A stretch of 32,000 bases of DNA from Corynebacterium amycolatum (GTDB lineage Bacteria; Actinomycetota; Actinomycetes; Mycobacteriales; Mycobacteriaceae), in assembly GCF_049243625.1 (NCBI RefSeq), contig NZ_CP046975.1; one strand, given 5' to 3'. The notes beneath the pieces are model-generated. The model made no database searches. It was not told the origin of the DNA and was given only the letters and a program-made list of their open reading frames with translations. Positions within the stretch are counted from its first letter, which is position 1, and each line of letters starts with the position of its first letter. This document shows, in pieces, positions 3,553 through 32,000 of the stretch. The position numbers and the translations under genes were made by a program.

Positions 3553-4197
3553 ATGACTAAAGAAGAGAAGAAGCCCGCAATTCCCGAGCAGGTCGAGGGA
3601 GCTAGGCAGGCGTGGCGGGTTACGGCCGTGTTGCAGCTGCTCCTCGCTGCAGTAGCCACGGTGACCTACTGGCTGCATCCGGAAATGCTGATGAGCCCCT
3701 CAACCGCTAAGGAGAGTTTCCCGGGTTTCAGCGAGGGCCAGATTGATGCCGCCATGAAGGCGAGTATCGTTATCGCGTTCTTTTTCGCAGTGGGGCTTTG
3801 CATCGCGTTCTTCGCCATCATCGAGCGAATGCGCAAGGGGAGCGAAGGTGCTCGCACCGTGCTGGTTATCGGCTCGCTTTACCTGGCACTGTCGGCGCTG
3901 ATGTCCTTCTTCTCTTCTACGGCTTCAGAATCGGGAGTGCCATCATCCCTTGTTCTTATCAGCGGAATTGTGCGAATCGCCTCTGCCACTGCCGCGGTAG
4001 CTGGCCTGGTGCTCGCCGCCTCGAAGGAGTCCAAGGACTACTTCAATCATCAGCGCCCCTCGAAACCGTGGACTCCGTCCGCGCCGAAATCGCATCTGCC
4101 GGGAGCGTCGAAGCATGGCGCTGATACAAAGCAGCAACAGCAGCTGGACCAGTCACAGCCCAAGCAGCCCAAGCAGCCTGAGGAGTCCAAGCAATGA
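3553..4197 (+). CDS. Hypothetical integral membrane protein (about 4 TM) with a Gln/Lys/Pro-rich C-terminal tail
   Basis: Four hydrophobic segments are visible in the translation. The stop overlaps the next start (ATGA at 4194-4197). I recall two uncharacterised membrane-protein genes (Rv0513/Rv0514) following hemB in M. tuberculosis. No recognisable catalytic motif. Confidence 0.6.
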   Translation: MTKEEKKPAIPEQVEGARQAWRVTAVLQLLLAAVATVTYWLHPEMLMSPSTAKESFPGFSEGQIDAAMKASIVIAFFFAVGLCIAFFAIIERMRKGSEGARTVLVIGSLYLALSALMSFFSSTASESGVPSSLVLISGIVRIASATAAVAGLVLAASKESKDYFNHQRPSKPWTPSAPKSHLPGASKHGADTKQQQQLDQSQPKQPKQPEESKQ

Positions 4198-4574
4198 TGT
4201 CCCTGCCGAGTCGGCCCTGGCAGTGGGTGCTCTTCGTCGCGCTCATCGCCCAGATTGTCCTGAGCTTGATACTGGTCACCGGAGATTACTCGCAGGCTCC
4301 CGCTGCCGTTGGCCGCGATATCTACATCGTCGCCGGTGTGACGCTGGTCTGCTCGCTCATTGGTAGCGGCTGCTTGCCGACGGCCACTGAGTTCAAACTC
4401 TCCCGGAACTGCCTGCTCATCATGGTGATTGTCACGGCTCTCGCCATGTTCTTTGCCATTATGGCCGGTGCGCTGACTGTATGGGTTATCGTGCCCAGCC
4501 TGGCGATGGCGTGTGGACTACTGTTGCTCTATCGTGAATTAGCGCTCACGCGCGCCAATCAGCCACAGGATTAG
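4194..4574 (+). CDS. Hypothetical integral membrane protein (about 4 TM)
   Basis: 126 aa, almost entirely hydrophobic helices. The start overlaps the upstream stop by 4 bp. The gene lies 20 bp upstream of the ATPase-like gene. Confidence 0.6.
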   Translation: MMSLPSRPWQWVLFVALIAQIVLSLILVTGDYSQAPAAVGRDIYIVAGVTLVCSLIGSGCLPTATEFKLSRNCLLIMVIVTALAMFFAIMAGALTVWVIVPSLAMACGLLLLYRELALTRANQPQD

Positions 4575-4593
4575 ACGGAAAGTTTCAAAGGCC

Positions 4594-7185
4594 ATGAGTG
4601 ACACCGGTGAGTTTGATTTCTCTCTGGACAATCGCGTTGAACAGGCGATTGTGGATGCCAAGGTCGCTGCTCGTAAGGCATTGCCACGAAGCCGTCAGGA
4701 TATCGACGAAGAAAGTGCCCATCAGCGGCTTGCACACCGCAGAGGCCAGTCCAACACAGCTTTCGCACTCATCCTGGAAAACTTGGAAAACGCCGAGAGC
4801 GCTGAGCGTGCTGAGCATGTTTTGGAATCCTTTCCAGATGTGACAGCCTCTGTGGTTTACAAGCCCGGACGCGCGTGGATTACAGCGCCCGATACCATCG
4901 ATCCGAATCAGTTCATCGAAGCTCTCCGCGAAATCGGGGTCGAGTCGTACCTCACGCGCAGCACGCTTCGTCGTCGTGCAACTCGGCTGGATGTGTCACA
5001 ACATCGCCGTCCCGCTGTTCCGGCTGCCGCTCAACAGAATGAGGAGGAGCGCATTCGCCGTCGTGAAGCGGCCTTGCGCCGAAGCGGCGGCGGTGCGGAG
5101 GTACTGTTCACGGCGCGTGAACTGGTGACCAAGCAGCGCTTTTGGGGCAGCCTGTTCCTATCGATTCCGGTGCTGGTGACGTCGTTGAACGTCAACTGGC
5201 AGTTCCCGGGCTGGCAGTGGATGTGCCTTGTGCTGACCACGATTGTGGTGTGGTGGGGTGGCTGGCCGTTCCACCGGGCAATGGCGGCGTCCCTGCGTCG
5301 GCGGATGTCGGCGCTGGATGGGGCGAGCTCCATTGCCATTCTGCTGGCGTGGCTGTGGTCGCTGGCGCAGCTTATCTTTGGTCCCGCGGGACAGATTGGA
5401 TATACCACTGCGCCCACGTGGTTTGCTTTCAACTACCGGGAAAGCGCCTCGGCAGAGGTGTTTTTCGACGTTGCTTGCGGCCTGACCGTGCTGTTGCTAA
5501 CAGGCCGTATGTTTACGCGCTACAACAAGGTGCGTACTGGACAGATTTTGCGCAACCTGCGCATTCCAGCTGAGCGAAATGTGACGGTCGTGCGCAAGAG
5601 CGCCAAATCCGCGGAGCCGAAACGAGTGGAGGTAACGGTCGCCGAGCTCAATATCGGTGATGACATCGTGGTTCCACCGCACTCGGTGATTCCGGTCGAT
5701 GGCTCAGTCATCGGTGGTGCGTCCACGATGGATGCACAGCTACTCGGTATTGGCGTTGAACCGCAGAAGGTCAAGGTCAACTCCAAGGTTTGGGCCGGCG
5801 CAATCAACCTGGATTCGGAGCTCAAGGTGCGCGTGGAGCGCACCGGTTTCAAGACCCGGGCGTCATCGATAGCGCGCTGGCTGCGTCAAGCGGTTCGAGA
5901 AGAAACGGTGATGCACCAGACCGCAGTGCACTCGGCATCAGAGCTGGTGCCGTGGACGCTGTCATTGGCAGGCGTGGCATTTTGCGGCTGGTGGCTGGCG
6001 ACGGGCACGATGAGCGGTGCCCTCGCGGTGGCGCTGGCCATACTCTCGGGCATCGCGCCGGTGGCATTGGCAATGTCTACGTCGACCGTGCAGCGCATCG
6101 GGATTCTGGCCGGTGCTAGTAACGGAATTTTGATTCGTGGCAATGAGACTTTCCGGAAGTTGGCTACCGCCAATGTGGTGATTTTTAACCGAGTTGGAAC
6201 CCTGACCGAGGGTGACACCCACGTGCTCGGTGTCGCCGCAGAGCGCAATGAAAATCCGGATTTGGTTCTGCGTGTGGCGGGCGCTCTCATGATGGAGAGC
6301 AACCACCCGGCATCGGCGGCCATCGTGCGCGCGTGCCGTGCATCCCGCGACGCCGGTTCCGGCGGTGGCGAGGTGCCGCACTGGATTGAGACCGTGCATG
6401 TCGCAATTGCGGAAGACGGTGCGTTCGTTGGCCAGGTAGAGATTCCGGTGAAGGACTCCGACGACAAGTTGGAGATGCGCTTTGTTGAGGGGCGTGTTTG
6501 GCGTCCACGTGATCTCACTGCACTCAGCGAGAAAATGGCCGTGGCTGCGCTCAGTGGCGGTACACCGATGGTGGTGTCGTGGCGTGGCAAGGTCCGTGGT
6601 GTTATCACCATTGGTGAGGACATTAAGCCCGATGCGGTCGAGAGCATTGACCAGCTGGAGGATATGGGCGTGGACACCATGATGATCACTCGAGATCCGT
6701 ATCCAGTAGCTCGTCGTTTTGCTGACCGGCTGAATATCTCGCGAGTATTCGCGGGCATCATTGCCTCCCGCAAGGCCATTGCGGTGCGTTCGGTCCACAG
6801 TGACGGTGAGACAGTCGTGATGGTTGGCGACAAGGACATCCGGGACTCTCTGCGTGCCGCTGATGTGGGTGTTTTGATGGACAACACCGAAGGCAACCAG
6901 AATCTTGATGTCGATTACGCCGATGTCGTGGCACTGCGCAACAACGTGTTGTCGATTCCGGAGGCCATTGAAATCGCACGTGCTGTGGTGCGGATGATGG
7001 ACTCCAACATCTACTTTGCGTGGTTCTACAACGTTGCAGTCATCCTGCTGGGTATGACCGGTATGATTCACCCGCTCCTGGCATCGCTATTGATGATTTT
7101 CTCCAGCTTGTGGATCGACTGGCGTTCCCGTCGAGTGTCGTCCCGCAGGAAGCATCTATTCAGGGTGAAGCTGGGACGTTGGTAG
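4594..7185 (+). CDS. CopA-like P1B-type ATPase homolog with degenerate catalytic and metal-binding motifs (probable pseudo-enzyme, not an active pump)
   Basis: 863 aa with the complete P1B layout: an HMA-like N-domain, 8 predicted TM segments, an actuator region (GDDIVVPPHSVIPVDG), a P/N domain (VGTLTEG, SNHPAS, MMITRD, VGD...AADVGV), an M5 YN and an M6 MIFSS (MxxSS). The key residues are replaced; see findings. Confidence 0.85.
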   Translation: MSDTGEFDFSLDNRVEQAIVDAKVAARKALPRSRQDIDEESAHQRLAHRRGQSNTAFALILENLENAESAERAEHVLESFPDVTASVVYKPGRAWITAPDTIDPNQFIEALREIGVESYLTRSTLRRRATRLDVSQHRRPAVPAAAQQNEEERIRRREAALRRSGGGAEVLFTARELVTKQRFWGSLFLSIPVLVTSLNVNWQFPGWQWMCLVLTTIVVWWGGWPFHRAMAASLRRRMSALDGASSIAILLAWLWSLAQLIFGPAGQIGYTTAPTWFAFNYRESASAEVFFDVACGLTVLLLTGRMFTRYNKVRTGQILRNLRIPAERNVTVVRKSAKSAEPKRVEVTVAELNIGDDIVVPPHSVIPVDGSVIGGASTMDAQLLGIGVEPQKVKVNSKVWAGAINLDSELKVRVERTGFKTRASSIARWLRQAVREETVMHQTAVHSASELVPWTLSLAGVAFCGWWLATGTMSGALAVALAILSGIAPVALAMSTSTVQRIGILAGASNGILIRGNETFRKLATANVVIFNRVGTLTEGDTHVLGVAAERNENPDLVLRVAGALMMESNHPASAAIVRACRASRDAGSGGGEVPHWIETVHVAIAEDGAFVGQVEIPVKDSDDKLEMRFVEGRVWRPRDLTALSEKMAVAALSGGTPMVVSWRGKVRGVITIGEDIKPDAVESIDQLEDMGVDTMMITRDPYPVARRFADRLNISRVFAGIIASRKAIAVRSVHSDGETVVMVGDKDIRDSLRAADVGVLMDNTEGNQNLDVDYADVVALRNNVLSIPEAIEIARAVVRMMDSNIYFAWFYNVAVILLGMTGMIHPLLASLLMIFSSLWIDWRSRRVSSRRKHLFRVKLGRW

Positions 7186-7220
7186 GGCAGGGTAGCCCTT
7201 AATCCGAGTGGCCGTCTACG

Positions 7221-8567
7221 ATGGTCACCGTGACTCAAGACATTAATGCTCCTCATGTCCCAGAAAACGTTGAGCTCACCGAGCGTTCGGCAGAGTTCTT
7301 TACGCAGGCTCAGGCAGTGACGCCGGGTGGCGTGAACTCGCCGGTCCGCGCCTTCGGTTCCGTCGGTGGCACCCCACGTTTCATTGACCACGCCGCGGGC
7401 TCTCGTCTCGTGGATGTTGATGGCAACGAATATGTGGACTTGGTCTGCTCGTGGGGTCCAATGATTCTGGGCCACGCCCACCCGGCAGTGGTGGAGGCCG
7501 TTCAGAGTGCCGCCACTCGCGGGTTGTCTTTCGGCGCTCCGACGACGGCTGAGACCGATCTGGCTCGTCACATCGTTGAGCGCACGTCGGTAGATGAGGT
7601 GCGTCTGGTCAACTCCGGCACTGAGGCCACCATGTCCGCAGTTCGCCTGGCTCGCGGTTTCACTGGCCGTTCCAAGATCATCAAGTTCGCCGGCTGCTAC
7701 CACGGTCACGTGGACGCGCTGCTGGCATCGGCCGGTTCTGGTGTCGCTACTTTTGGTCTGCCGGATTCGCCGGGTGTCACCGGTGCATCGGCTGCCGACA
7801 CCATTGTTGTTCCTTACAACGACATTGAGGCGGTCAAGGCCGCATTTGCTGAGAACCCGGGCGAGATTGCCTGTGTCATCACTGAGGCGGCAGCGGGCAA
7901 CATGGGTACCGTCGCACCGCAGGACAACTTCAACGCGAAGCTGAAGGAAGTCTGCCACGCAGACGGCGCTCTGCTGATCCTCGATGAGGTTATGACTGGC
8001 TTCCGCGCTTCCTACAACGGCTGGTACGGCATTGATGGTGTGGCCGGTGACCTGACCACCTTCGGCAAGGTCGTCTCCGGTGGTTTGCCGGCCGCTGCCT
8101 TCGGCGGTCGCCGCGATGTCATGGAGTATCTGGCCCCGAATGGTCCGGTGTACCAGGCAGGTACGCTCTCCGGTAACCCGGTCGCTATGGCAGCTGGCCT
8201 GGCCAACCTGGAAAACGCCACGAAGGATGTCTATGACACCGTTGCGGCCAATGCGGATTGCCTGGCCACGATTCTGTCCGATGCCCTGACCAAGCAGGGC
8301 GTGGCCCACCACATTCAGCGTGCGGGCACGATGCTCTCGCCGCGCTTCGCCGAGGGTGAGGGGCACAACTTTGAGCAGATGCAGGCAGCGGATACTTTCC
8401 GCTACCCGGCCTTCTTCCACGCACTGCTGGCCAATGGTGTCTACCCGCCGGCTTCTTGCTACGAGACCTGGTTCGTCTCCGCCGCACTCACCGACGCCGA
8501 CTTCGAAATCATCGAGCGTGCAGCAGCCCGCGCGGCCGAGGCGGCGGCAGCCGCCAAGCCGGAGTAG
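7221..8567 (+). CDS. hemL: Glutamate-1-semialdehyde 2,1-aminomutase
   Basis: [12 protein letters not shown], the class-III aminotransferase body, [11 protein letters not shown] and [11 protein letters not shown] (PLP-lysine region) are typical HemL. Confidence 0.93.
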
Positions 8568-9985: not shown

Positions 9986-10861
9986 ATGGGAACTTTTGCC
10001 ATGGACACGATCTATTTTGCCGATGGCATCGGCCAGCAGTTCGCCGACGTCGCCACCGGCGGTCCCATTGTGTTGGGGCTGCTCGCCGCTGCACTGGCCG
10101 GTCTCGTCTCCTTCGCTAGCCCGTGCGTTATCCCGCTTGTGCCAGGTTATGTCTCCTATCTCACCGGTATTTCCGGAGCATCGGGGGCGCAGGGCAACGG
10201 CGTGACGACGGGAGTTGCGGACGCAACCTCCGTCGATAAGCATGACGGCGATGGAGGTCGTGGCCAGCGTTCCTCAACAGCCCGCGTCGGCCTGGCCGCG
10301 TTGCTGTTCGTGTTGGGTTTTACTGTCATTTTCGTGCTGGGGTCGGCCTCGATTTTCGGGCTCGTGTCCACGTTGCGTCTGCAGGCGCGCACGCTGACGA
10401 TTGTCGGTGGCGTGGTGACCATCGTGATGGGGCTTGCCTTCATGGGCATGGTGCCAGCGCTGCAGAAAGACACCCGCATGGCGCCGAAGCGCTGGACCAC
10501 CTGGCTGGGAGCGCCACTGCTCGGCGCGGTGTTCGCGCTGGGGTGGACGCCGTGTCTGGGCCCGACGCTGACTGCAATTATTTCGGTGTCCGCAGGTACA
10601 CAGGGCATGACTGCGGCCAGGGGAGTGGCGCTGATTATCGCTTACTGCCTGGGGCTGGGGCTGCCGTTCATTTTGGTGGCGCTGGGGTCGGCACGTGCGA
10701 TGCGGGGAGTGGACTTCCTGCGTAAGCACTCGCGAACCATTCAGCTCATCGGTGGTGTGGCGCTGGTGCTGGTCGGAATTGCCCTGGTCACGGGACTGTG
10801 GGATGTTTTTGTTGCCTGGGTTCAGGCCGCTTTTATTACTGATACGGTAACGCCAATTTAG
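9986..10861 (+). CDS. ccdA: Cytochrome c biogenesis thiol-reductant transporter CcdA (DsbD-family membrane protein)
   Basis: Two conserved Cys-containing TM motifs, FASPCVIPLVPGY and GWTPCLGPTL. A multi-TM protein in the System II context. Confidence 0.85.
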   Translation: MGTFAMDTIYFADGIGQQFADVATGGPIVLGLLAAALAGLVSFASPCVIPLVPGYVSYLTGISGASGAQGNGVTTGVADATSVDKHDGDGGRGQRSSTARVGLAALLFVLGFTVIFVLGSASIFGLVSTLRLQARTLTIVGGVVTIVMGLAFMGMVPALQKDTRMAPKRWTTWLGAPLLGAVFALGWTPCLGPTLTAIISVSAGTQGMTAARGVALIIAYCLGLGLPFILVALGSARAMRGVDFLRKHSRTIQLIGGVALVLVGIALVTGLWDVFVAWVQAAFITDTVTPI

Positions 10862-12565: not shown

Positions 12566-12605
12566 CTGACCACTAAGCCTGGTCCATCCCTGCCACAGGC
12601 TGAAT

Positions 12606-12642
12606 GCGCGGAGGCGGAAAATGCGCCTCCGCGCAACTTTTT
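12606..12642 (+). terminator. Rho-independent terminator downstream of resB
   Basis: An 11-bp perfect GC-rich stem, gcgcggaggcg (12606-12616) paired with cgcctccgcgc (12624-12634), with a 7-nt loop, followed by aacTTTTT (12635-12642). It lies 40 nt after the resB stop. Confidence 0.6.
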
Positions 12643-17807: not shown

Positions 17808-18977
17808 CTAGCTTCTTTTCTGAACTTTCTCCAGCACCCGCTCGATTGCCTGGTTCACCACATCCGGAGCCTCCAGCGGCAACATGTGGCCGGCCCCGTC
17901 GACTTCAACTAGCTCGGCGTCCGGCCACTTTTCCATAATTAGGTCTGCTTGCTTGCGGGGAGTGACATCGTCCTTCGTGCCCACCAGTACCGCTCCCGGC
18001 AGACCCTCTAAGTGAGGTCCGGCCGCGAACTCGTCATGGTCCTGCAGGTCGTCGAGGTATCCCACGAAAGTTTCCAGCGGTGTTTCATTAATCATGGCCG
18101 CGTGGAACTCGATGATCTCGTAGTCCGTGCGCCGGGCGAACACCGCAACTGCCAACGACGGCGCCATCAGTGACGCGATTGCCTCGCGGAACTTGCGGAT
18201 CTCCTTCGGCGAGGACTCAATCGCATTGCGCGCCGCATCCGCCACCGGGGACGCGAGAATCTGCGGTACCCCCTGGGCGGCAAGCTTGTCGATAGACGTG
18301 GAAATCAGCACTACGCCTGCGATCCGACGGCGAATACTTTCCTCGGCAGCGCGCACCATGTGCAGTGCGATCAAACCGCCCAGTGAATGCCCAACCACGA
18401 TGAGTTTTCCGGTCCCGGCGCGCTCTGCAATCACGGCCAGCGCATCGGTCGCAGCACCTTCGACCGTGCAGAGTGAAGCCGGAACCGCGCCGGTCTGGCC
18501 GTGGCCGCGTAGATCCATGGTGAGCAGGCGTGCTTCCGGGTGTGACTTCCGCAGTGCGTTGAACTGTTGGTACCAGGACTCGCCAGCCAGGGTGAAGCCG
18601 TGGATAAAGACGATGGTCACAGGTTCTTTGGCGGGCTCGCCTGGTTCAACCTCGTACCAGTGCACCGGAATATCGGTGGTGACAGCATCCGGTTTGTCGC
18701 TGGCCTTTCGCTCGTCATCCTTGGCCGCAATGTCGGCTGTGACCGGTGTGGTCTTGATATGTACTACGCCGGTGGCCGTAAGATCAGTCAGGCCTGGTTC
18801 ACGGGTCTGTGAATGCAGCGCGCCGTGCTCCAGTGCCAGTCGCCGACGCCCCGAACTGGTCAAACGCAGAGCAGCGCTGCGGACGAAAGCTGGAGCCTTG
18901 GCTGCTGTGTCACCTACTCGGGTTGCGGCCTTCTGGACGTCGTCAAGCGTCTTGTGCGTCAGTGCGCGGAAGTCCAT
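17808..18977 (-). CDS. Alpha/beta-fold hydrolase with an N-terminal extension of about 110 aa
   Basis: The HGF oxyanion segment (VTIVFIHGFTLAG), the nucleophile elbow VVGHSLGG, and a C-terminal GAGHMLPLE (catalytic His region). The start is 9 bp downstream of the menA stop on the same strand. Confidence 0.85.
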   Translation of the reverse strand: MDFRALTHKTLDDVQKAATRVGDTAAKAPAFVRSAALRLTSSGRRRLALEHGALHSQTREPGLTDLTATGVVHIKTTPVTADIAAKDDERKASDKPDAVTTDIPVHWYEVEPGEPAKEPVTIVFIHGFTLAGESWYQQFNALRKSHPEARLLTMDLRGHGQTGAVPASLCTVEGAATDALAVIAERAGTGKLIVVGHSLGGLIALHMVRAAEESIRRRIAGVVLISTSIDKLAAQGVPQILASPVADAARNAIESSPKEIRKFREAIASLMAPSLAVAVFARRTDYEIIEFHAAMINETPLETFVGYLDDLQDHDEFAAGPHLEGLPGAVLVGTKDDVTPRKQADLIMEKWPDAELVEVDGAGHMLPLEAPDVVNQAIERVLEKVQKRS

Positions 18978-18986
18978 CGGTACCCC

Positions 18987-19883
18987 TTAGCTGAGTGCGA
19001 GTGCGAGTGCCGTGATGACGGACCAGGCAAGCATCATCTTGCCGGTAAGCCCCAGTACCGGGATGAGCTCCTTGCCCTTCTTATGCATGCGGATTGGCTC
19101 GGAGGCCCTCACCCACAGCGGCACGATGAGCAGACCCACCAGCGCCCATGGGTGCCAGAAAGCGATAAAGATACTGGCCAGGGCAGGCATGATGGAGAGA
19201 ATCTGCCAGACGATGCGGGTGCGGAAGTCGCCCAGGCGAACTGCCAGGGTGATCTTGCCGGTGGCAGCGTCGGTGGGAATATCGCGCAAGTTGTTCGCCA
19301 GGTTTACGGCAGAGGACACCGAACCGATACCGATTGCGCAGGCCAGGCCGACCCAGGACAGGGAGCCGGTCTGGGTGAACTCCGTACCGAGCACCGCGAC
19401 GAGACCGAAGAAGACGAAGACCGAGACCTCGCCAAGTCCGCGATAACCGTAGGGGTTTTTACCGCCGGTGTAGAACCACGCCGCCGCAATGCACAGCGCG
19501 CCGACCAGAATGAGCCACCACGCGCTCATCAGAGACAGCGCTACACCGGCAAGACCCGCGACACCAAAGGCGCCGAACGCCGCGTACTTCACAACCTTCG
19601 GCTCCACCAGCCCAGAACCAGTCAGGCGCAGCGGGCCCGAGCGGTCATCGTCAGTACCGCGGATGCCATCGGAGTAGTCGTTGGCGAAGTTCACGCCCAC
19701 AATCAGCGCCCACGCGACAACCAGCGCGAGCACCGCACGTCCCCAGATAATCGGCGCGTGCGTCGATGCCGCTCCGACACCGACGATGACCGGCGCAAAC
19801 GCATTCGCCCAGGTATGGGGGCGCGCGCCTTCCAGCCAATCGCTTAACGACGCCGTTGCAGGACTCTTTGGTGCTTCAGACAT
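18987..19883 (-). CDS. menA: 1,4-dihydroxy-2-naphthoate polyprenyltransferase
   Basis: A UbiA-family membrane protein with the first Asp-rich motif NFANDYSDGIRGTDD and a second motif region, NNLRDIPTD. It sits in the men gene neighbourhood. Confidence 0.9.
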   Translation of the reverse strand: MSEAPKSPATASLSDWLEGARPHTWANAFAPVIVGVGAASTHAPIIWGRAVLALVVAWALIVGVNFANDYSDGIRGTDDDRSGPLRLTGSGLVEPKVVKYAAFGAFGVAGLAGVALSLMSAWWLILVGALCIAAAWFYTGGKNPYGYRGLGEVSVFVFFGLVAVLGTEFTQTGSLSWVGLACAIGIGSVSSAVNLANNLRDIPTDAATGKITLAVRLGDFRTRIVWQILSIMPALASIFIAFWHPWALVGLLIVPLWVRASEPIRMHKKGKELIPVLGLTGKMMLAWSVITALALALS

Positions 19884-19968
19884 GAATTAATAATAGGACG
19901 TGACACCAAATGCCTTGAACTAATGCGGGTTCGAGTGGCTTAAAGGCTGGAGGACACAAGTCCAAAGG

Positions 19969-21129
19969 CTAAAAGAGCGCCGCGACTTTCTTCCGGTCGA
20001 CCTTGCCCGGCCCAATTAGCGGTAGGGCCTCCACGCGACGCAGGTCCTTGGGAATCATCCAGTGATTGATTCGCCCGGCGTCTTCAGCATCGCCGAGCCC
20101 GTCCATGACATCACCGAGCTCAGCGGTGCCTTCATACGCTGCGACGATAGCGTGGCCGAGCCGTGGGTGTGGCACGCCCACCACACAAGCTCCCGTAACT
20201 CCATCGATGGCGAGCAGTTCACGCTCGAGGACTTCGGGGTGCAGTTTCAGCCCGCCGGAGTCGATGATGGTGTCCAGACGTCCCGTGATGACGAGCCGGC
20301 CATCGCGGATCTCGCCCGCATCGGAGGTGGCGAACCAACCTGGTTTATGGAAATCCTCGTGACCGGGCGCATTGCGGTAACCGTGTGCAATCATCGGCCC
20401 GCCCAGCCAGACGCGACCATTTTCGATGGCGACCTGTGCGCCTTCAATAGGCTGCCCGTCATAGACGCAGCCGCCGGCTGTCTCGGAGGAGCCATAGGTG
20501 GTCACGACGTTAATGCCGAGCTCTTCCGCACGTGCTGCCACCTGCGGGTTCAAGGCCGCGCCGCCGACGAGGATGGCGTCGAAGAGGCGCAGGGCTGCCA
20601 CGCCAAAGGGTTCTTCCATGGCCTTCGCCAGCTGCATGGGAGCTAGCGAAGTGTAGGCGCGGTCGCCGGCACCGGCACCAGTGAGGGCCTCGGCACCGTC
20701 AGCGAATGCGGCTACATCAAAACCATCGGTCACATCCACACACACCGGATCCGTGCCCGCGAGCAGCGAACGGATGAGAACCTGCAGGCCAGCGATATGG
20801 TAGGCCGGCATCGCCAGCAGCCACTGTCCTTCACCACCGAGCCACTGATGTGTAGCGGTAGCAGAGGAGACCAAGTTATCCACCGTCAGCTGTGCACCCT
20901 TCGGTGTGCCGGTGGAACCGGAGGTGCCGACAACAAGTGCGATGGACTCATCAATTGGCTCACCTGCGCGTTGCGAGTTCCGCAAGATTGAGGCTCGCGT
21001 GCCGTCGTGAAGCGGAACGGGGAGCAAAGAGACCTCGCCGTCCAGCGCGGCACGGAGGTCGGGCAGGATATCGGTCGAGTCGTGGGGATTGACGGAAAGC
21101 AGGCTGAGCGTACGCACAATCCAAACCAT
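19969..21129 (-). CDS. menE: o-Succinylbenzoate-CoA ligase (adenylate-forming enzyme)
   Basis: AMP-binding motif I VVGTSGSTGTPKGAQL, TTYGSSETAG, and the short (about 386 aa) MenE-type size, next to menA. I prefer the ATG at 21129 (MVWIVRTL...). The track start at 21234 would leave only 29 bp to the divergent msrA. Confidence 0.8.
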   Translation of the reverse strand: MVWIVRTLSLLSVNPHDSTDILPDLRAALDGEVSLLPVPLHDGTRASILRNSQRAGEPIDESIALVVGTSGSTGTPKGAQLTVDNLVSSATATHQWLGGEGQWLLAMPAYHIAGLQVLIRSLLAGTDPVCVDVTDGFDVAAFADGAEALTGAGAGDRAYTSLAPMQLAKAMEEPFGVAALRLFDAILVGGAALNPQVAARAEELGINVVTTYGSSETAGGCVYDGQPIEGAQVAIENGRVWLGGPMIAHGYRNAPGHEDFHKPGWFATSDAGEIRDGRLVITGRLDTIIDSGGLKLHPEVLERELLAIDGVTGACVVGVPHPRLGHAIVAAYEGTAELGDVMDGLGDAEDAGRINHWMIPKDLRRVEALPLIGPGKVDRKKVAALF

Positions 21130-21263
21130 AGCCCGTGTTGTGCCGTAGTTTCTGGTGACGAGGCGTGTGAAACGTGAGTGTGGCGGTGGTGACGGGCGGA
21201 ACAATCGTCGCCGCGGACGCGTTGCGCAGAGCATAGGAAGTCATAGATAGAAAGGCATCGAAG

Positions 21264-27572: not shown

Positions 27573-28253
27573 TTAGTGTGAGTTTTCCACTTGCCGAAAA
27601 GTGATATTGATGCGGCCCTCTTTAAGCCCGCACCCCTCCGGCAAAGTGTCCGGACGAGTCTTGGGCACACCATGAAACGCAAGCCGCTTGGGACCACCAA
27701 ACACAATCACATCCCCGCTGGCGAGAGTCACGTCATCCCAGGGTTTGTTGCGGTTTTCAGTCCCGCCAATGCGGAACAGGGCCTCGTCACCGATAGAGAG
27801 CGACACAATTGGGGCAGGGGAGTTTTCGTTGCGATCCTGGTGCATCCCCATGGTGGCCCCGGGTGGGTAGTAGTTGACCAACGCCATGTCGGGCCGAAAA
27901 GTGGCAGGCCACTGGCTGAGGGATTCGTCGTAAAGCGCGGCGGCACGAAGTGCTTCGGTGGCGAGCTGCAGCAGATTGTCAGGCACAGGCGGGACGCGAA
28001 CGCCGCCTGCGTGCGTGACGTAGCGGTACGGATTCGTGGCCCACATGCGCCCCAGATGCAGCATGAAGACCTGCATCTGACCACTTTTGAGCTGCGGGCG
28101 AGTCATGGCCAGGGGAGTGCCGGCAACGTCGCGGGCGATGTCGCGGAGTTGCGTGATGATGCCGGCCTGCCGCTCCAATGGAAGCCACCCCGGAAGATGA
28201 ACAACTCCCGGCGTGATGCGGGCATCGTCGCGCGGGAGCTGATCGAAGAGCAT
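27573..28253 (-). CDS. alkB: AlkB-like Fe(II)/2-oxoglutarate-dependent dioxygenase
   Basis: HxD in MGMHQDRNE, a second His in LAFHGVP, and RINITFRQ (the RxNxTxR 2OG-binding motif). I prefer the ATG at 28253 (MLFDQLP...). The track start at 28454 overlaps the SDR gene. Confidence 0.78.
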   Translation of the reverse strand: MLFDQLPRDDARITPGVVHLPGWLPLERQAGIITQLRDIARDVAGTPLAMTRPQLKSGQMQVFMLHLGRMWATNPYRYVTHAGGVRVPPVPDNLLQLATEALRAAALYDESLSQWPATFRPDMALVNYYPPGATMGMHQDRNENSPAPIVSLSIGDEALFRIGGTENRNKPWDDVTLASGDVIVFGGPKRLAFHGVPKTRPDTLPEGCGLKEGRINITFRQVENSH

Positions 28254-28269
28254 AGGTCTAGTTTGCCTC

Positions 28270-29052
28270 TTAACCCGCGATGATTGCGTTAACCGGGCGG
28301 GACAGGAACTGCGGACCAATCTTGCCCAGGTAGCGCAGGATAAAGTCCGCTGCCGACACCGAGTAGAAGTGCCGCTGGCGCTCAATGAAGTTCTGCGGAT
28401 GCGTTGCCTTCCACACGGCATCTGCGACCTGATCCGGCGTGATGCGCACGCCAAGACGGCGGGTCGAACCAGCGGAAACGTCCGCCAGCTTGGTCTTCGC
28501 CCACAGCGGCATGATGGCGACGACGCGGATCTTGTCCTTGCGCCATTCCAAATCCAGAGCTTGCGTTAGACCCGAGACGTAGAACTTCGACGCAGAGTAC
28601 GGCGCGATGTGCGGCTGACCGTAGATACCCGAAGCCGAACCCATGTTGACCAGGTGAGACCCCTTGGTGCGCTTCAGGTACGGATGCGCCGCCTTCGCAC
28701 CCAGCGTCAGGCCGGTGCAGTTGATGTCCACCTGCGCGTGAATAATCTCCGGCGACTGGTCAGTGATATCGCCATCGCCGATGATGCCCGCGTTATTGTC
28801 CAGCACCGTCAGCTTGCCGCCGGTGTGGGAGGTGAAGTCCGCAAGCGCGTCCTCCCACTGCTTAAAGTCCGTCACGTCCAGCTTGCCGACGATTACCTCC
28901 GGGCGCTCAGCCTTAAGCTTCGCCAGGGCATCCTCGTTGATGTCGTAGACGCCTACGGTCCAGCCCGCGGCCAGGAACTTCTCGGCCACCGCGCGGCCAA
29001 TGCCCTGCGCGCCGCCGGAGATGAAAATGGACGGGGAATCAGAAGTAGCCAT
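28270..29052 (-). CDS. Short-chain dehydrogenase/reductase (SDR) family oxidoreductase
   Basis: The cofactor motif ISGGAQGIGRAVA (TGxxxGIG type), NNAG, and the catalytic YSASKFYV (YxxxK). Confidence 0.88.
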   Translation of the reverse strand: MATSDSPSIFISGGAQGIGRAVAEKFLAAGWTVGVYDINEDALAKLKAERPEVIVGKLDVTDFKQWEDALADFTSHTGGKLTVLDNNAGIIGDGDITDQSPEIIHAQVDINCTGLTLGAKAAHPYLKRTKGSHLVNMGSASGIYGQPHIAPYSASKFYVSGLTQALDLEWRKDKIRVVAIMPLWAKTKLADVSAGSTRRLGVRITPDQVADAVWKATHPQNFIERQRHFYSVSAADFILRYLGKIGPQFLSRPVNAIIAG

Positions 29053-30643: not shown

Positions 30644-31612
30644 CTAGTAATAGAACGGGAATTCTTCCCAGTTCGGGGCACGCTTCTCCAAGAACGCTTC
30701 CTTGCCCTCGACGGCTTCGTCGGTCATGTAGGCCAGGCGAGTAGCCTCGCCCGCGAAGACCTGCTGGCCCATCAGGCCGTCGTCGGTTAGGTTGAAGGCG
30801 AACTTCAGCATGCGCTGCGCCGTCGGGGACTTACCGTTGATCATGCGACCCCACTCGACCGCGACATCTTCCAACTCAGCGTGGTCGGCGACCTCGTTCA
30901 CGGCGCCCATGCGGTGCATGGTCTCAGCGTCGTAGGAGCGGCCGAGGAAGAAAATCTCGCGGGCAAACTTCTGACCAACCTGCTTTGCCAGGTAGGCCGA
31001 GCCATAGCCGGCGTCGAAAGATCCCACGTCAGCGTCGGTCTGCTTAAAGCGGGCCTCCTGGCGCGATGCGAGCGTCAGGTCACACACCACGTGCAGGGAG
31101 TGTCCGCCACCTGCGGCCCAACCGTTGACCACGGCAATGACAACCTTCGGCATAGTGCGAATTAGGCGCTGCACCTCCAGGATGTGCAGGCGACCTCCCT
31201 CGACCTTGGCTCGCGCGGTATCGATGGTGGATGCGTCCGCGGTGGCGTCGTCATGCTCGTGAGACGTTGCGTACTGGTAACCGGAACGACCACGAATGCG
31301 CTGGTCGCCGCCCGAACAGAATGCCCAGCCACCGTCCTTGGTGCTCGGGCCGTTACCGGTCAGCAGCACAACGCCGACATCCGGAGTGCGACGCGCGTGG
31401 TCGAGCGCGCGGTAGAGCTCATCGACGGTATGCGGGCGGAATGCGTTACGAACCTCCGGGCGATCAAACGCAATACGCACAATGCCGTTCTCGCGGCCCT
31501 CGCCGACGTGGCGGTGGTAGGTGATGTCGGTCAAATCCTCAAAACCATCAACCGTCTTCCACTGCTCGGGGCGGAAGGGGTTATCGGTCGAGTACTTCGC
31601 GGTATCAGTCAT
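30644..31612 (-). CDS. menB: 1,4-dihydroxy-2-naphthoyl-CoA synthase
   Basis: Crotonase fold: VVLLTGNGPSTKDGGWAFCSGGDQ, GWAAGGGHSLHVVCDLT, QTDADVGSFDAGYGS and a C-terminal FLEKRAPNWEEFPFYY. I prefer the ATG at 31612 (MTDTAKYSTDNPF); ATGs at 31624 and 31639 are alternatives. The track N-terminus up to 31933 is antisense to menC. Confidence 0.9.
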   Translation of the reverse strand: MTDTAKYSTDNPFRPEQWKTVDGFEDLTDITYHRHVGEGRENGIVRIAFDRPEVRNAFRPHTVDELYRALDHARRTPDVGVVLLTGNGPSTKDGGWAFCSGGDQRIRGRSGYQYATSHEHDDATADASTIDTARAKVEGGRLHILEVQRLIRTMPKVVIAVVNGWAAGGGHSLHVVCDLTLASRQEARFKQTDADVGSFDAGYGSAYLAKQVGQKFAREIFFLGRSYDAETMHRMGAVNEVADHAELEDVAVEWGRMINGKSPTAQRMLKFAFNLTDDGLMGQQVFAGEATRLAYMTDEAVEGKEAFLEKRAPNWEEFPFYY

Positions 31613-31637
31613 GGCTTCCAGCATAAAGGTCTCTAGC

Positions 31638-32000
31638 ATGAGGGGTATGTCTGTGTCCGCTGCGCCCAACATCCAGTTTCCGCCAATCGATGGCATTCTC
31701 GACCGCGCCCACGTCGTGGCGCTACCCATGGCGGTGAAATTCCGCGGCGTCACCACCCGCGAGGCACTCCTCATCGACGGCCCCGCCACCTGGGGCGAGT
31801 TCGCGCCCTTCCTGGAGTACGAGGCGCCCGAAGCTGCCGCGTGGCTGCGCTCGGCCATCGAATGCGCATACGTTGGCCTGCCCACCCCGAAGCGCGAGTT
31901 TGTCGAGGTCAACGCCACCATCCCCGCCGTCACGCCCGAGCAGGTGCCGGAGGTCGTGGGGCGTTACCCCAGGTGTCGCACGTTCAAGGTCAAGGTCGCA
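31638..32000 (+). CDS. menC: o-Succinylbenzoate synthase, N-terminal part (runs off the window, so it is absent from the ORF track)
   Basis: The frame is open from the ATG at 31638 (or 31647) to base 32000 in exactly 121 codons: MRGMSVSAAPNIQFPPIDGILDRAHVVALPMAVKFRGVTTREALLIDGPATWGEFAPFLEYE... This resembles the short actinobacterial MenC N-terminus (from memory). It is divergent from menB. Confidence 0.72.
   Translation, partial: MRGMSVSAAPNIQFPPIDGILDRAHVVALPMAVKFRGVTTREALLIDGPATWGEFAPFLEYEAPEAAAWLRSAIECAYVGLPTPKREFVEVNATIPAVTPEQVPEVVGRYPRCRTFKVKVA

Follow-up and report, generated by a model that had tools for sequence, protein, structure and literature searches.

Corynebacterium amycolatum carries, among its heme biosynthesis genes, a gene for a protein that is built like a copper-exporting P1B-type ATPase and in which the residues of catalysis and metal binding have been replaced. 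The gene lies in a 32,000-nucleotide (nt) stretch of contig NZ_CP046975.1 (RefSeq assembly GCF_049243625.1), referred to below as the window, and its product of 863 amino acids (aa) is called here the pseudo-ATPase. In more than 120 protein clusters from Corynebacterium, the residues that took their place are fixed, and selection on the gene is strongly purifying. On balance, and with no great confidence, we favour the reading that the pseudo-ATPase is a catalytically dead P1B-1 paralogue of the CtpA/CtpB-CopA-type Cu(I) pumps, which arose once in the ancestor of Corynebacterium, was kept by purifying selection and may serve as a ligand-dependent switch or scaffold. A C. amycolatum database entry 99 % identical to it bears the label “heavy metal translocating P-type ATPase”, probably in error.

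Scaffold and active-site motifs of the pseudo-ATPase

By descent and by fold, the protein belongs to the P-type (E1-E2) ATPases, as indicated by profiles, by an AlphaFold2 (AF2) model and by Foldseek. In Pfam, E1-E2_ATPase (PF00122) is matched at residues 340–508 (E = 3.7e-26) and HAD Hydrolase (PF00702) at residues 529–747 (E = 4.7e-12), and the general P-type model TIGR01494 is passed with 107.9 bits against a cut-off of 62.3. In contrast, the pseudo-ATPase stays under the trusted cut-offs of all the specific P1B models of NCBIfam, with 297.6 against 346.25 for TIGR01525, 237.7 against 397 for TIGR01511, and 160 against 1316 for the CopA equivalog NF007952. The nearest solved structure found with phmmer is that of the Legionella copper pump LpCopA (3RFU, E = 2.8e-49). 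The AF2 model, built on 39 family members, has a mean predicted local distance difference test score (pLDDT) of 83 and a predicted TM-score (pTM) of 0.69; it shows a separate domain at residues 54–120, the MA/MB helices, six further transmembrane helices and the actuator (A), phosphorylation (P) and nucleotide-binding (N) domains. In a Foldseek search of the PDB, the top matches are P1B pumps only (ATP7B and CopA). As a rigid body, the model fits best onto AfCopA in the E1 state (7r0g, target-normalised TM-score 0.84, root-mean-square deviation 4.5 Å), and ATP7B D1027A comes next with a target-normalised TM-score of 0.76. The P1B-1 (CopA-type) scaffold of the pseudo-ATPase is therefore complete. 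The initial annotation had described an intact 863-aa open reading frame (ORF) with a P1B scaffold, and this description is borne out by the open frame, Pfam, the pairwise alignment, the model and Foldseek alike.

The N-terminal domain is HMA-like in its fold. DSSP assigns to it in the AF2 model the order beta-alpha-beta-beta-alpha-beta with a pLDDT of 80–94, and no HMA profile of Pfam matches the pseudo-ATPase even at E ≤ 1. The linker that joins this domain to MA has a mean length of 70 aa in the family versus 41 aa in genuine pumps, i.e., about 30 residues more, and carries a net charge of +8.3 versus −4.5. It has its own family-specific invariants (L125, R127 and L171/T173, with R128 nearly invariant), and its pLDDT is low in parts. 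The C. amycolatum linker holds about 16 Arg and an LFTAR motif.

The columns of the classical motifs were set by the phmmer alignment to LpCopA 3RFU and by a MAFFT alignment with 65 genuine actinobacterial CopA-type pumps, a comparison set recovered from related loci; the family frequencies given below refer to an alignment of 121 sequences, i.e., the pseudo-ATPase and its 120 best homologues. The substitutions noticed in the initial annotation (NRVGT, GIG, APV, TRD, SNHP and NAES) all fall in the motif columns defined in this way (Table 1). In the phosphorylation motif, where genuine pumps have D, K, T, G and T at 100 %, the replacements N532 and R533, as well as G535, are found in 121/121 sequences. 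Hence, of the HAD motifs, motif I lacks its nucleophilic Asp (DxD/DxT) and has Asn532 at the nucleophile position, while motif II (S/T699 in 121/121) and the Lys of motif III (K727, invariant) are in place. R700 and D701 of the former TGD are each present in 121/121 sequences, and Y703 and V705 of the family motif that follows are invariant. In the hinge, G745 is found in 121/121 sequences and D746 in 101/121, the other positions being variable. The initial reading of the hinge as GDKDIRDS was correct as to the substitution, but its end had been placed 3 nt short (at 6846 instead of 6849). Neither TGD nor GDGxND, which together coordinate Mg2+ and phosphate in the P domain, is therefore present in its functional form. 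The TGE loop of the A domain is variable across the family and contains indels. In the N domain, H571 of the SEHP motif is kept in 95 % of the family; the upstream Glu of the adenine pocket (E457 in AfCopA numbering) has become M566, and the GxG glycines (G608 and G610) are lost.

In M4, both Cys of CPC are lost, and the substitutes are well conserved (P489 in 121/121, A488 in 108/121 and V490 in 112/121). At the cytoplasmic entry site, the column of LpCopA M148 has invariant Met in genuine pumps and invariant Leu in the pseudo family, and the columns of E205 and D337 are variable, so that all three entry-site residues are gone. At the exit site, the position of LpCopA E189, which is E in genuine pumps, is taken by D292 in 98 % of the family. 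One helical turn away, at a position that is A in genuine pumps, all family members (100 %) have C295, the sole invariant Cys among the four Cys of the protein. The YN and MIFSS motifs survive, as had been stated initially, with Y812 in 121/121, N813 in 119/121, M834 in 118/121 and the two serines of MxxSS in 96/121 and 99/121 sequences. As to the CxxC of the HMA-like domain, its position is occupied by NAES, since GMTCASC of the 65 genuine pumps aligns to NLENAES; this column is not conserved within the family.

No DKTG, CPC or GDGxND exists elsewhere in the protein or in other frames, and a check of all six frames of positions 4000–7800 upheld the earlier statement that DKTG is absent. Nor is DKTG found at the phosphorylation site, or CPC or GDGxND in the corresponding columns, in any of the 120 best homologues. 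With Asn in place of the nucleophile, no aspartyl-phosphate could form and thus, judging from the established Post-Albers chemistry of P-type ATPases, neither the E1-E2 cycle nor copper pumping should be possible.

Table 1. Features of the pseudo-ATPase gene, its two upstream neighbours and the C. otitidis orthologue (positions in the window unless a locus is given).
Feature	Position	Strand	Residues or remark
Pseudo-P1B ATPase, full ORF	4594..7185	+	863 aa plus stop
Asn-Arg-Val-Gly-Thr replacing phosphorylation motif DKTGT	6187..6201	+	N532
APV of M4 replacing Cu-binding CPC	6055..6063	+	A488-P489-V490
GIG replacing TGE, A domain	5746..5754	+	from G385; alignment column
TRD replacing TGD, followed by family motif xYPVA	6688..6696	+	T699-R700-D701
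SNHP, N-domain SEHP motif	6298..6309	+	from S569
GDKDIRDS replacing hinge GDGxNDxP	6826..6849	+	from G745; one-residue deletion, ND lost
Retained P-domain catalytic-site Lys	6772..6774	+	K727; invariant in family and genuine pumps
NAES replacing CxxC of HMA-like domain	4789..4800	+	from N66
Leu at cytoplasmic Cu-entry Met (LpCopA M148)	5314..5316	+	L241; alignment to LpCopA
FFDVAC of M2	5461..5478	+	290–295
YN of M5 (P1B-1 signature), retained	7027..7032	+	812–813
MxxSS of M6 (MIFSS), retained	7093..7107	+	834–838
N-terminal HMA-like ferredoxin fold without metal ligands	4753..4953	+	54–120
Arg-rich linker, HMA-like domain to MA	4954..5121	+	121–176
MA/MB helices and platform with QFxGWQW and WPFHRA	5122..5301	+	177–236
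Actuator (A) domain	5560..5853	+	323–420
First four-transmembrane ORF	3553..4197	+	214 aa; 46 nt after hemB; no Pfam family
Second four-transmembrane ORF	4194..4574	+	126 aa; overlaps the first by 4 nt; ends 19 nt before the pseudo-ATPase ATG; no Pfam family
C. otitidis (formerly Turicella) orthologue P0131	L081:8001-10367		most divergent, 31 % identical

Selection, distribution and origin

The ratio of nonsynonymous to synonymous substitution rates (dN/dS) against a 95 %-identical orthologue (locus L001) is 0.059 at dS 0.38, within the range of the neighbouring genes in the same comparison (hemB 0.035, hemL 0.034, ResB 0.068 and ResC 0.126). The reading frame is intact in 17 genomic loci and in more than 120 protein clusters, and about 90 columns are invariant among 39 diverse family members. 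As for the columns that are at least 95 % conserved in genuine pumps, 72 of 260 are kept in the pseudo family. Thus, catalytic residues have been lost under purifying selection and the replacements are fixed, as expected of a pseudo-enzyme, while the marks of a pseudogene (disrupted orthologue frames, dN/dS near 1) are missing. The initial annotation had preferred a repurposed, non-hydrolysing protein to a fresh pseudogene, and had listed, as observations that would overturn this view, intact motifs at another site in the protein, orthologues with frameshifts and a dN/dS close to 1; each was looked for and none was found.

The pattern of constraint in the family is inverted relative to that of genuine pumps, in which conservation is lowest in the N domain and among the highest in the A domain and M5–M6. 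In the pseudo family, the MA/MB platform and the N and P domains are the tightest and the A domain is relaxed. No region has a lower entropy than the MA/MB platform (1.27), and the N domain is more constrained than in pumps (1.34 versus 1.65). The A domain, on the contrary, has an entropy of 1.87 versus 0.96 and a net charge of +3.4 versus −5.6, and M5–M6 has an entropy of 1.57 versus 0.63. The platform residues Q203, F204, W207, Q208, W209, P225, F226, H227 and R228 are conserved in both groups. New, family-specific invariants are Cys295, Arg533 and Arg700, together with a cluster in the N domain that comprises R582, R585, D586, W597, G609, W636, P638, G656 and P658.

The family has been found in a single genus. 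The 120 best homologues are 40–99 % identical to the pseudo-ATPase, and all the named ones come from Corynebacterium. A scan of one genome per species gave 15 corynebacterial loci, every one of them with degenerate motifs, and then dropped to at most 32 % identity, where the genuine pumps of other Actinobacteria begin (Microbacterium, Kytococcus, Mycobacterium, Tsukamurella, Gordonia and others), with CASC, TGE, CPC, DKTGT and GDGVND. Similarly, when 1.84 billion representative proteins were searched with a profile, 12 full-length clusters scored at least 963 bits (with fragments in addition), the C. otitidis protein 568 bits and real pumps at most 481 bits. No orthologue was found in other Mycobacteriales or Actinobacteria: below 40 % identity, the named matches from outside Corynebacterium are all genuine pumps. 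The initial proposal to collect orthologues across Corynebacteriales has led to conserved substitutions, but the family does not spread beyond the genus. A few degenerate singletons occur lower in the match list.

In a neighbour-joining tree, the family, C. otitidis included, is monophyletic and forms its own branch. Most simply, a CtpA/CtpB-type copper pump would have been duplicated once in the ancestor of the genus, and the copy would then have lost its catalytic function. The C. otitidis orthologue shares with the family the FFDVACG, (S/T)RDxxPVA (in its case SRDxxPVA) and xRxG motifs, the clade and the locus, where hemB, two small membrane ORFs and the gene itself are followed by hemE. 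Unlike the rest of the family, it has an Asp at the phosphorylation position (DRSGAL) and has lost K727, His571, YN and MxxSS. This protein thus delimits the features common to the whole family, and it may represent an alternative or an intermediate route of degeneration.

Other independently degenerate P1B-like proteins were seen among the profile matches (P0143, P0207, P0184 and P0224). Their motifs include ARSGT with CPT, GKTGT with CPR and, in a protein of Streptomyces sp. SPB162, GPC; they are mostly singletons from short metagenomic contigs. P1B pumps may have lost catalysis repeatedly, or these proteins may be pseudogenes.

Genomic context

On the plus strand, the order of genes is hemC', a hemD/TP_methylase fusion, hemB, two ORFs with four transmembrane helices each (4-TM; 214 and 126 aa), the pseudo-ATPase gene and hemL, followed by genes for a histidine phosphatase, a thioredoxin-like protein, a CcdA-like protein, ResB and ResC. 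The neighbourhood described in the initial annotation (hemB, two small membrane ORFs, hemL and cytochrome c maturation genes) was recognised by Pfam, the membrane ORFs being without a family. The gaps within the hemB–hemL stretch do not exceed 46 nt. No terminator-like site with a strong stem of 10 GC pairs was found between hemB and the end of resB, and weaker matches to the terminator consensus in this interval lie inside coding sequence. The strongest terminator-like hairpin of the first 14 kb is located at 12605–12635 between resB and resC (12 pairs, 10 of them GC, with a T-run); if active, it would separate the System II partners resB and resC transcriptionally.

The order hemB – small membrane ORF(s) – pseudo-ATPase – (hemE – hemY) – hemL was observed in 15 of 15 loci, and the position in the operon is conserved in 16 of 16 with C. 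otitidis included, where the stop of the pseudo-ATPase gene overlaps the start of hemE by 17 nt. The insert before hemL in C. lemuris consists of hemE plus hemY, matching the C. glutamicum order of cg0516 (hemE) and cg0517 (hemY). By synteny, the C. glutamicum orthologue would be the gene that immediately precedes hemE (cg0516). The assignment of cg0516 to hemE comes from a published paper, the supplements of which are silent on cg0513–cg0515 (PMC7337898).

Of the 14 loci scanned, most have a 4-TM ORF comparable to the first one behind hemB, the exceptions being L007, L009 and L010. The second abuts or overlaps the start codon of the pseudo-ATPase gene in several species, and it is missing from some corynebacterial loci and therefore cannot be an obligate partner. 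A hidden Markov model of the second ORF finds matches only beside pseudo-ATPases and none beside the 65 genuine pumps, by which the idea that the 4-TM proteins are ancestral pump subunits was rejected. Both evolve fast, being 16–38 % identical across the genus, with an N-terminal MPSMFPxM...DPNR and a C-terminal YRP; a few species have one such ORF only, or a single ORF of 322 aa.

Several other genes of the window deserve a mention. The hemD ORF (734–2401, 555 aa) joins HEM4 (uroporphyrinogen-III synthase) to an N-terminal TP_methylase domain, and the same fusion exists in C. otitidis. The CcdA-like membrane ORF at 9986–10861 has no Pfam match at E ≤ 0.01, and its C. otitidis counterpart gives a weak match to DsbD_TM only; the product looks like a divergent CcdA. 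Candidate menaquinone genes, encoding UbiA-family (menA-like), AMP-binding (menE-like) and enoyl-CoA hydratase-family (menB-like) proteins, lie at 17808–21234 and 30644–31933 (minus strand), and an alpha/beta hydrolase gene is found alongside them. With these candidates, the window groups genes for heme, cytochrome c maturation and quinones. Finally, a 2OG-Fe(II) oxygenase (AlkB-like) ORF on the minus strand (27573–28454) begins with TTG, and its first ~60 codons (~185 nt) overlap another minus-strand ORF (28270–29052); its Pfam match does not begin before residue 83, and translation probably starts further downstream.

Possible functions and relation to known systems

The loss of the residues that handle ATP and copper, combined with strong selection, implies that the pseudo-ATPase has some other job. 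According to the reading that we favour, the phosphate pocket would have been rebuilt from Asn532, Arg533 (in place of Lys), Arg700 (in place of the Gly of TGD), Asp701, Lys727 and Gly745-Asp746. Such a pocket, with one carboxylate less and two guanidinium groups more, might bind phosphate or another anion instead of transferring it. The ligand would be phosphate-bearing or anionic, possibly a nucleotide, and would be held without turnover; D-to-N mutants of the Ca2+-ATPase bind ATP more tightly. Constrained N and P domains and platform, together with an A domain released from constraint, would suit a ligand-dependent membrane switch or scaffold, in which the ancestral elements of the outer face (the QFxGWQW loop, D292/C295 and YN/Met) would have been kept. 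Its partners would probably be the 4-TM proteins, whose co-transcription with the pseudo-ATPase is predicted. Since the gene has resided in the hemB-...-hemE/hemL operon from the root of the genus, the output would most likely concern heme or cytochrome homeostasis, speculative as this is; the protein might be a HemX-like membrane regulator of pathway flux or, as another option, a metal or porphyrin sensor. The initial annotation had offered, as speculation, a role in the insertion of heme or copper cofactors, for which the strictly conserved place in the operon is the one thing that speaks.

Several points weigh against this reading. The family evolves fast, its divergence within one genus (0.85) equalling that of real pumps across the phylum (0.88). 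C. otitidis keeps the Asp and has lost K727 and His571, and hence the fixed pocket is not universal. About half of the adenine-pocket residues of CopA (the Glu and GxG) have disappeared, so ATP may not be the ligand. It is the pattern of fixed residues, and nothing besides, that suggests ligand binding, and the literature has yielded no expression, phenotype or binding data on the pseudo-ATPase. Gene order is generally conserved across corynebacterial genomes, which makes the position next to the hem genes weak evidence of function.

Among the alternatives, a receptor on the outer face that would deliver or sense Cu(I) for cytochrome aa3 (CtaC/CtaD), or interact with the ResBC/CcdA machinery, without any pumping, seems unlikely, though it deserves consideration. 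In its favour, the extracytoplasmic MA-MB loop QFxGWQW has remained conserved to the degree seen in genuine actinobacterial pumps, D292, C295, M834, Y812 and N813 are retained, and the gene is located upstream of the ResA-CcdA-ResB-ResC genes. However, the best conserved family-specific residues belong to the cytoplasmic N and P domains, which a role confined to the outer face does not predict. Moreover, the hemB–hemL region of Mycobacterium tuberculosis presumably shows the same order hemB ... hemL-ccdA-resBC without the ATPase; this arrangement would predate the insertion, and the proximity to cytochrome c genes may therefore be inherited and not functional.

It is quite improbable that the pseudo-ATPase is a working transporter, either an unconventional ATP-driven pump or a passive channel or uniporter conducting Cu(I) or another metal via YN, Met834, D292 and Cys295. 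The preserved outer half of the P1B-1 ion path, in which C295 is invariant, and a confidently predicted membrane domain of eight helices speak for it. Nevertheless, Asn cannot accept phosphate and there is no alternative DKTG, both CPC Cys and all three entry-site residues have been lost, M5–M6 has been relaxed, and in C. otitidis YN and MxxSS are missing as well. Very unlikely, too, is a regulatory pseudo-subunit that would tune an active CopA/CtpV-type ATPase within a hetero-oligomer, as pseudokinases tune kinases. The protein is a paralogue of actinobacterial copper pumps with the platform and fold preserved, and P-type ATPase dimers exist, the MgtA dimer being among the Foldseek matches; yet no active pump or copper regulon gene is found nearby in the 16 loci examined, there is no evidence of co-variation, and only about 30 % identity to real pumps is left. 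As for a decaying pseudogene, i.e., a recently dead copper pump that is drifting, the absence of all catalytic motifs and an evolution faster than that of real pumps would fit, but the notion is hardly credible with a 2.6-kb frame intact here and throughout the family, and it is refuted by the low dN/dS and by the invariance of the substituted residues themselves.

A bolder version of the favoured reading holds that the pseudo-ATPases are the first naturally occurring, conserved dead family of P-type ATPases, in which a former pump, with its Asn/Arg/Arg pocket binding a nucleotide or some other phospho- or anionic ligand that it does not hydrolyse, has become a sensor or regulator and controls, together with the 4-TM proteins, heme or cytochrome homeostasis, e.g., through GtrR/HemA stability, coproporphyrin flux or coordinated delivery of copper and heme to the bc1-aa3 supercomplex. 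Taken as a whole, this proposal is doubtful, if conceivable. Neither the pseudo-ATPase nor any conserved dead P-type ATPase family was described in the literature searched, the coverage of which was incomplete; it included a 2023 survey of P-type ATPases and a 2024 review of heme regulation (PMC10991733). FUPA24, which contains the mycobacterial CtpH and CtpI, was considered and set aside as a different, oversized family.

In databases, members of the family are labelled “heavy metal translocating” or “copper-exporting” P-type ATPases, or “HAD family hydrolase”. With such pump labels, inventories of metal resistance and models of metabolism and transport over-count the copper pumps of Corynebacterium by one. 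The gene is present throughout a genus that includes pathogens (the C. diphtheriae group, C. jeikeium and C. amycolatum) and the industrial species C. glutamicum. P-type ATPases are among the best-studied membrane enzymes, and a conserved dead family would show that the E1-E2 scaffold has been reused beyond pumping, which would surprise specialists in the field; the organism is tractable for experiments. A natural “D-to-N” protein would also make it possible to observe how a ligand changes the conformation when no turnover takes place. If the pseudo-ATPase indeed acts in heme or cytochrome homeostasis, this would supply a missing piece in the post-transcriptional control of the coproporphyrin-dependent pathway, which is poorly understood.

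Three known systems invite comparison. The first is HemX, which is encoded in the hemAXCDBL operon of Bacillus and Staphylococcus and is a polytopic membrane protein that lowers the level of GtrR (HemA) by a mechanism not yet known (PMC10991733). Like HemX, the pseudo-ATPase would be a non-enzymatic polytopic membrane protein encoded in an early heme operon of a Gram-positive bacterium with the coproporphyrin-dependent pathway; the two are related neither in sequence nor in fold, and the analogy is one of genomic context only.

The second comprises the P1B-1 pumps themselves (LpCopA 3RFU/4BBJ, AfCopA 7R0G, ATP7B and the actinobacterial CtpA/CtpB). The HMA-like domain, MA/MB, the six core transmembrane helices and the A, P and N domains are common to both, as are YN, MxxSS, the WPFHRA platform and the QFxGWQW loop, which is typical of actinobacterial members. 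Unlike these pumps, the pseudo-ATPase is devoid of the phosphorylated Asp, TGE, CPC, CxxC, the ND of GDGxND and the Met, Glu and Asp of the entry site, and has a fixed Arg at both the Lys of DKTGT and the Gly of TGD.

The third is formed by pseudo-enzymes on other catalytic folds, such as the FCP1-like domain of Tim50 (a HAD-fold pseudo-phosphatase that serves as a binding module), the degenerate, non-hydrolysing ATP sites of ABC transporters and the pseudokinases. To our knowledge, no conserved, naturally dead family has been described in the P-type ATPase superfamily. Pseudo-enzymes that bind a ligand or act as a scaffold are usually recognised by selected replacements in the former active site, and the pseudo-ATPase resembles these proteins in all three respects: the fold has been kept, the nucleophile has been lost and the residues that replace the old site are under purifying selection.

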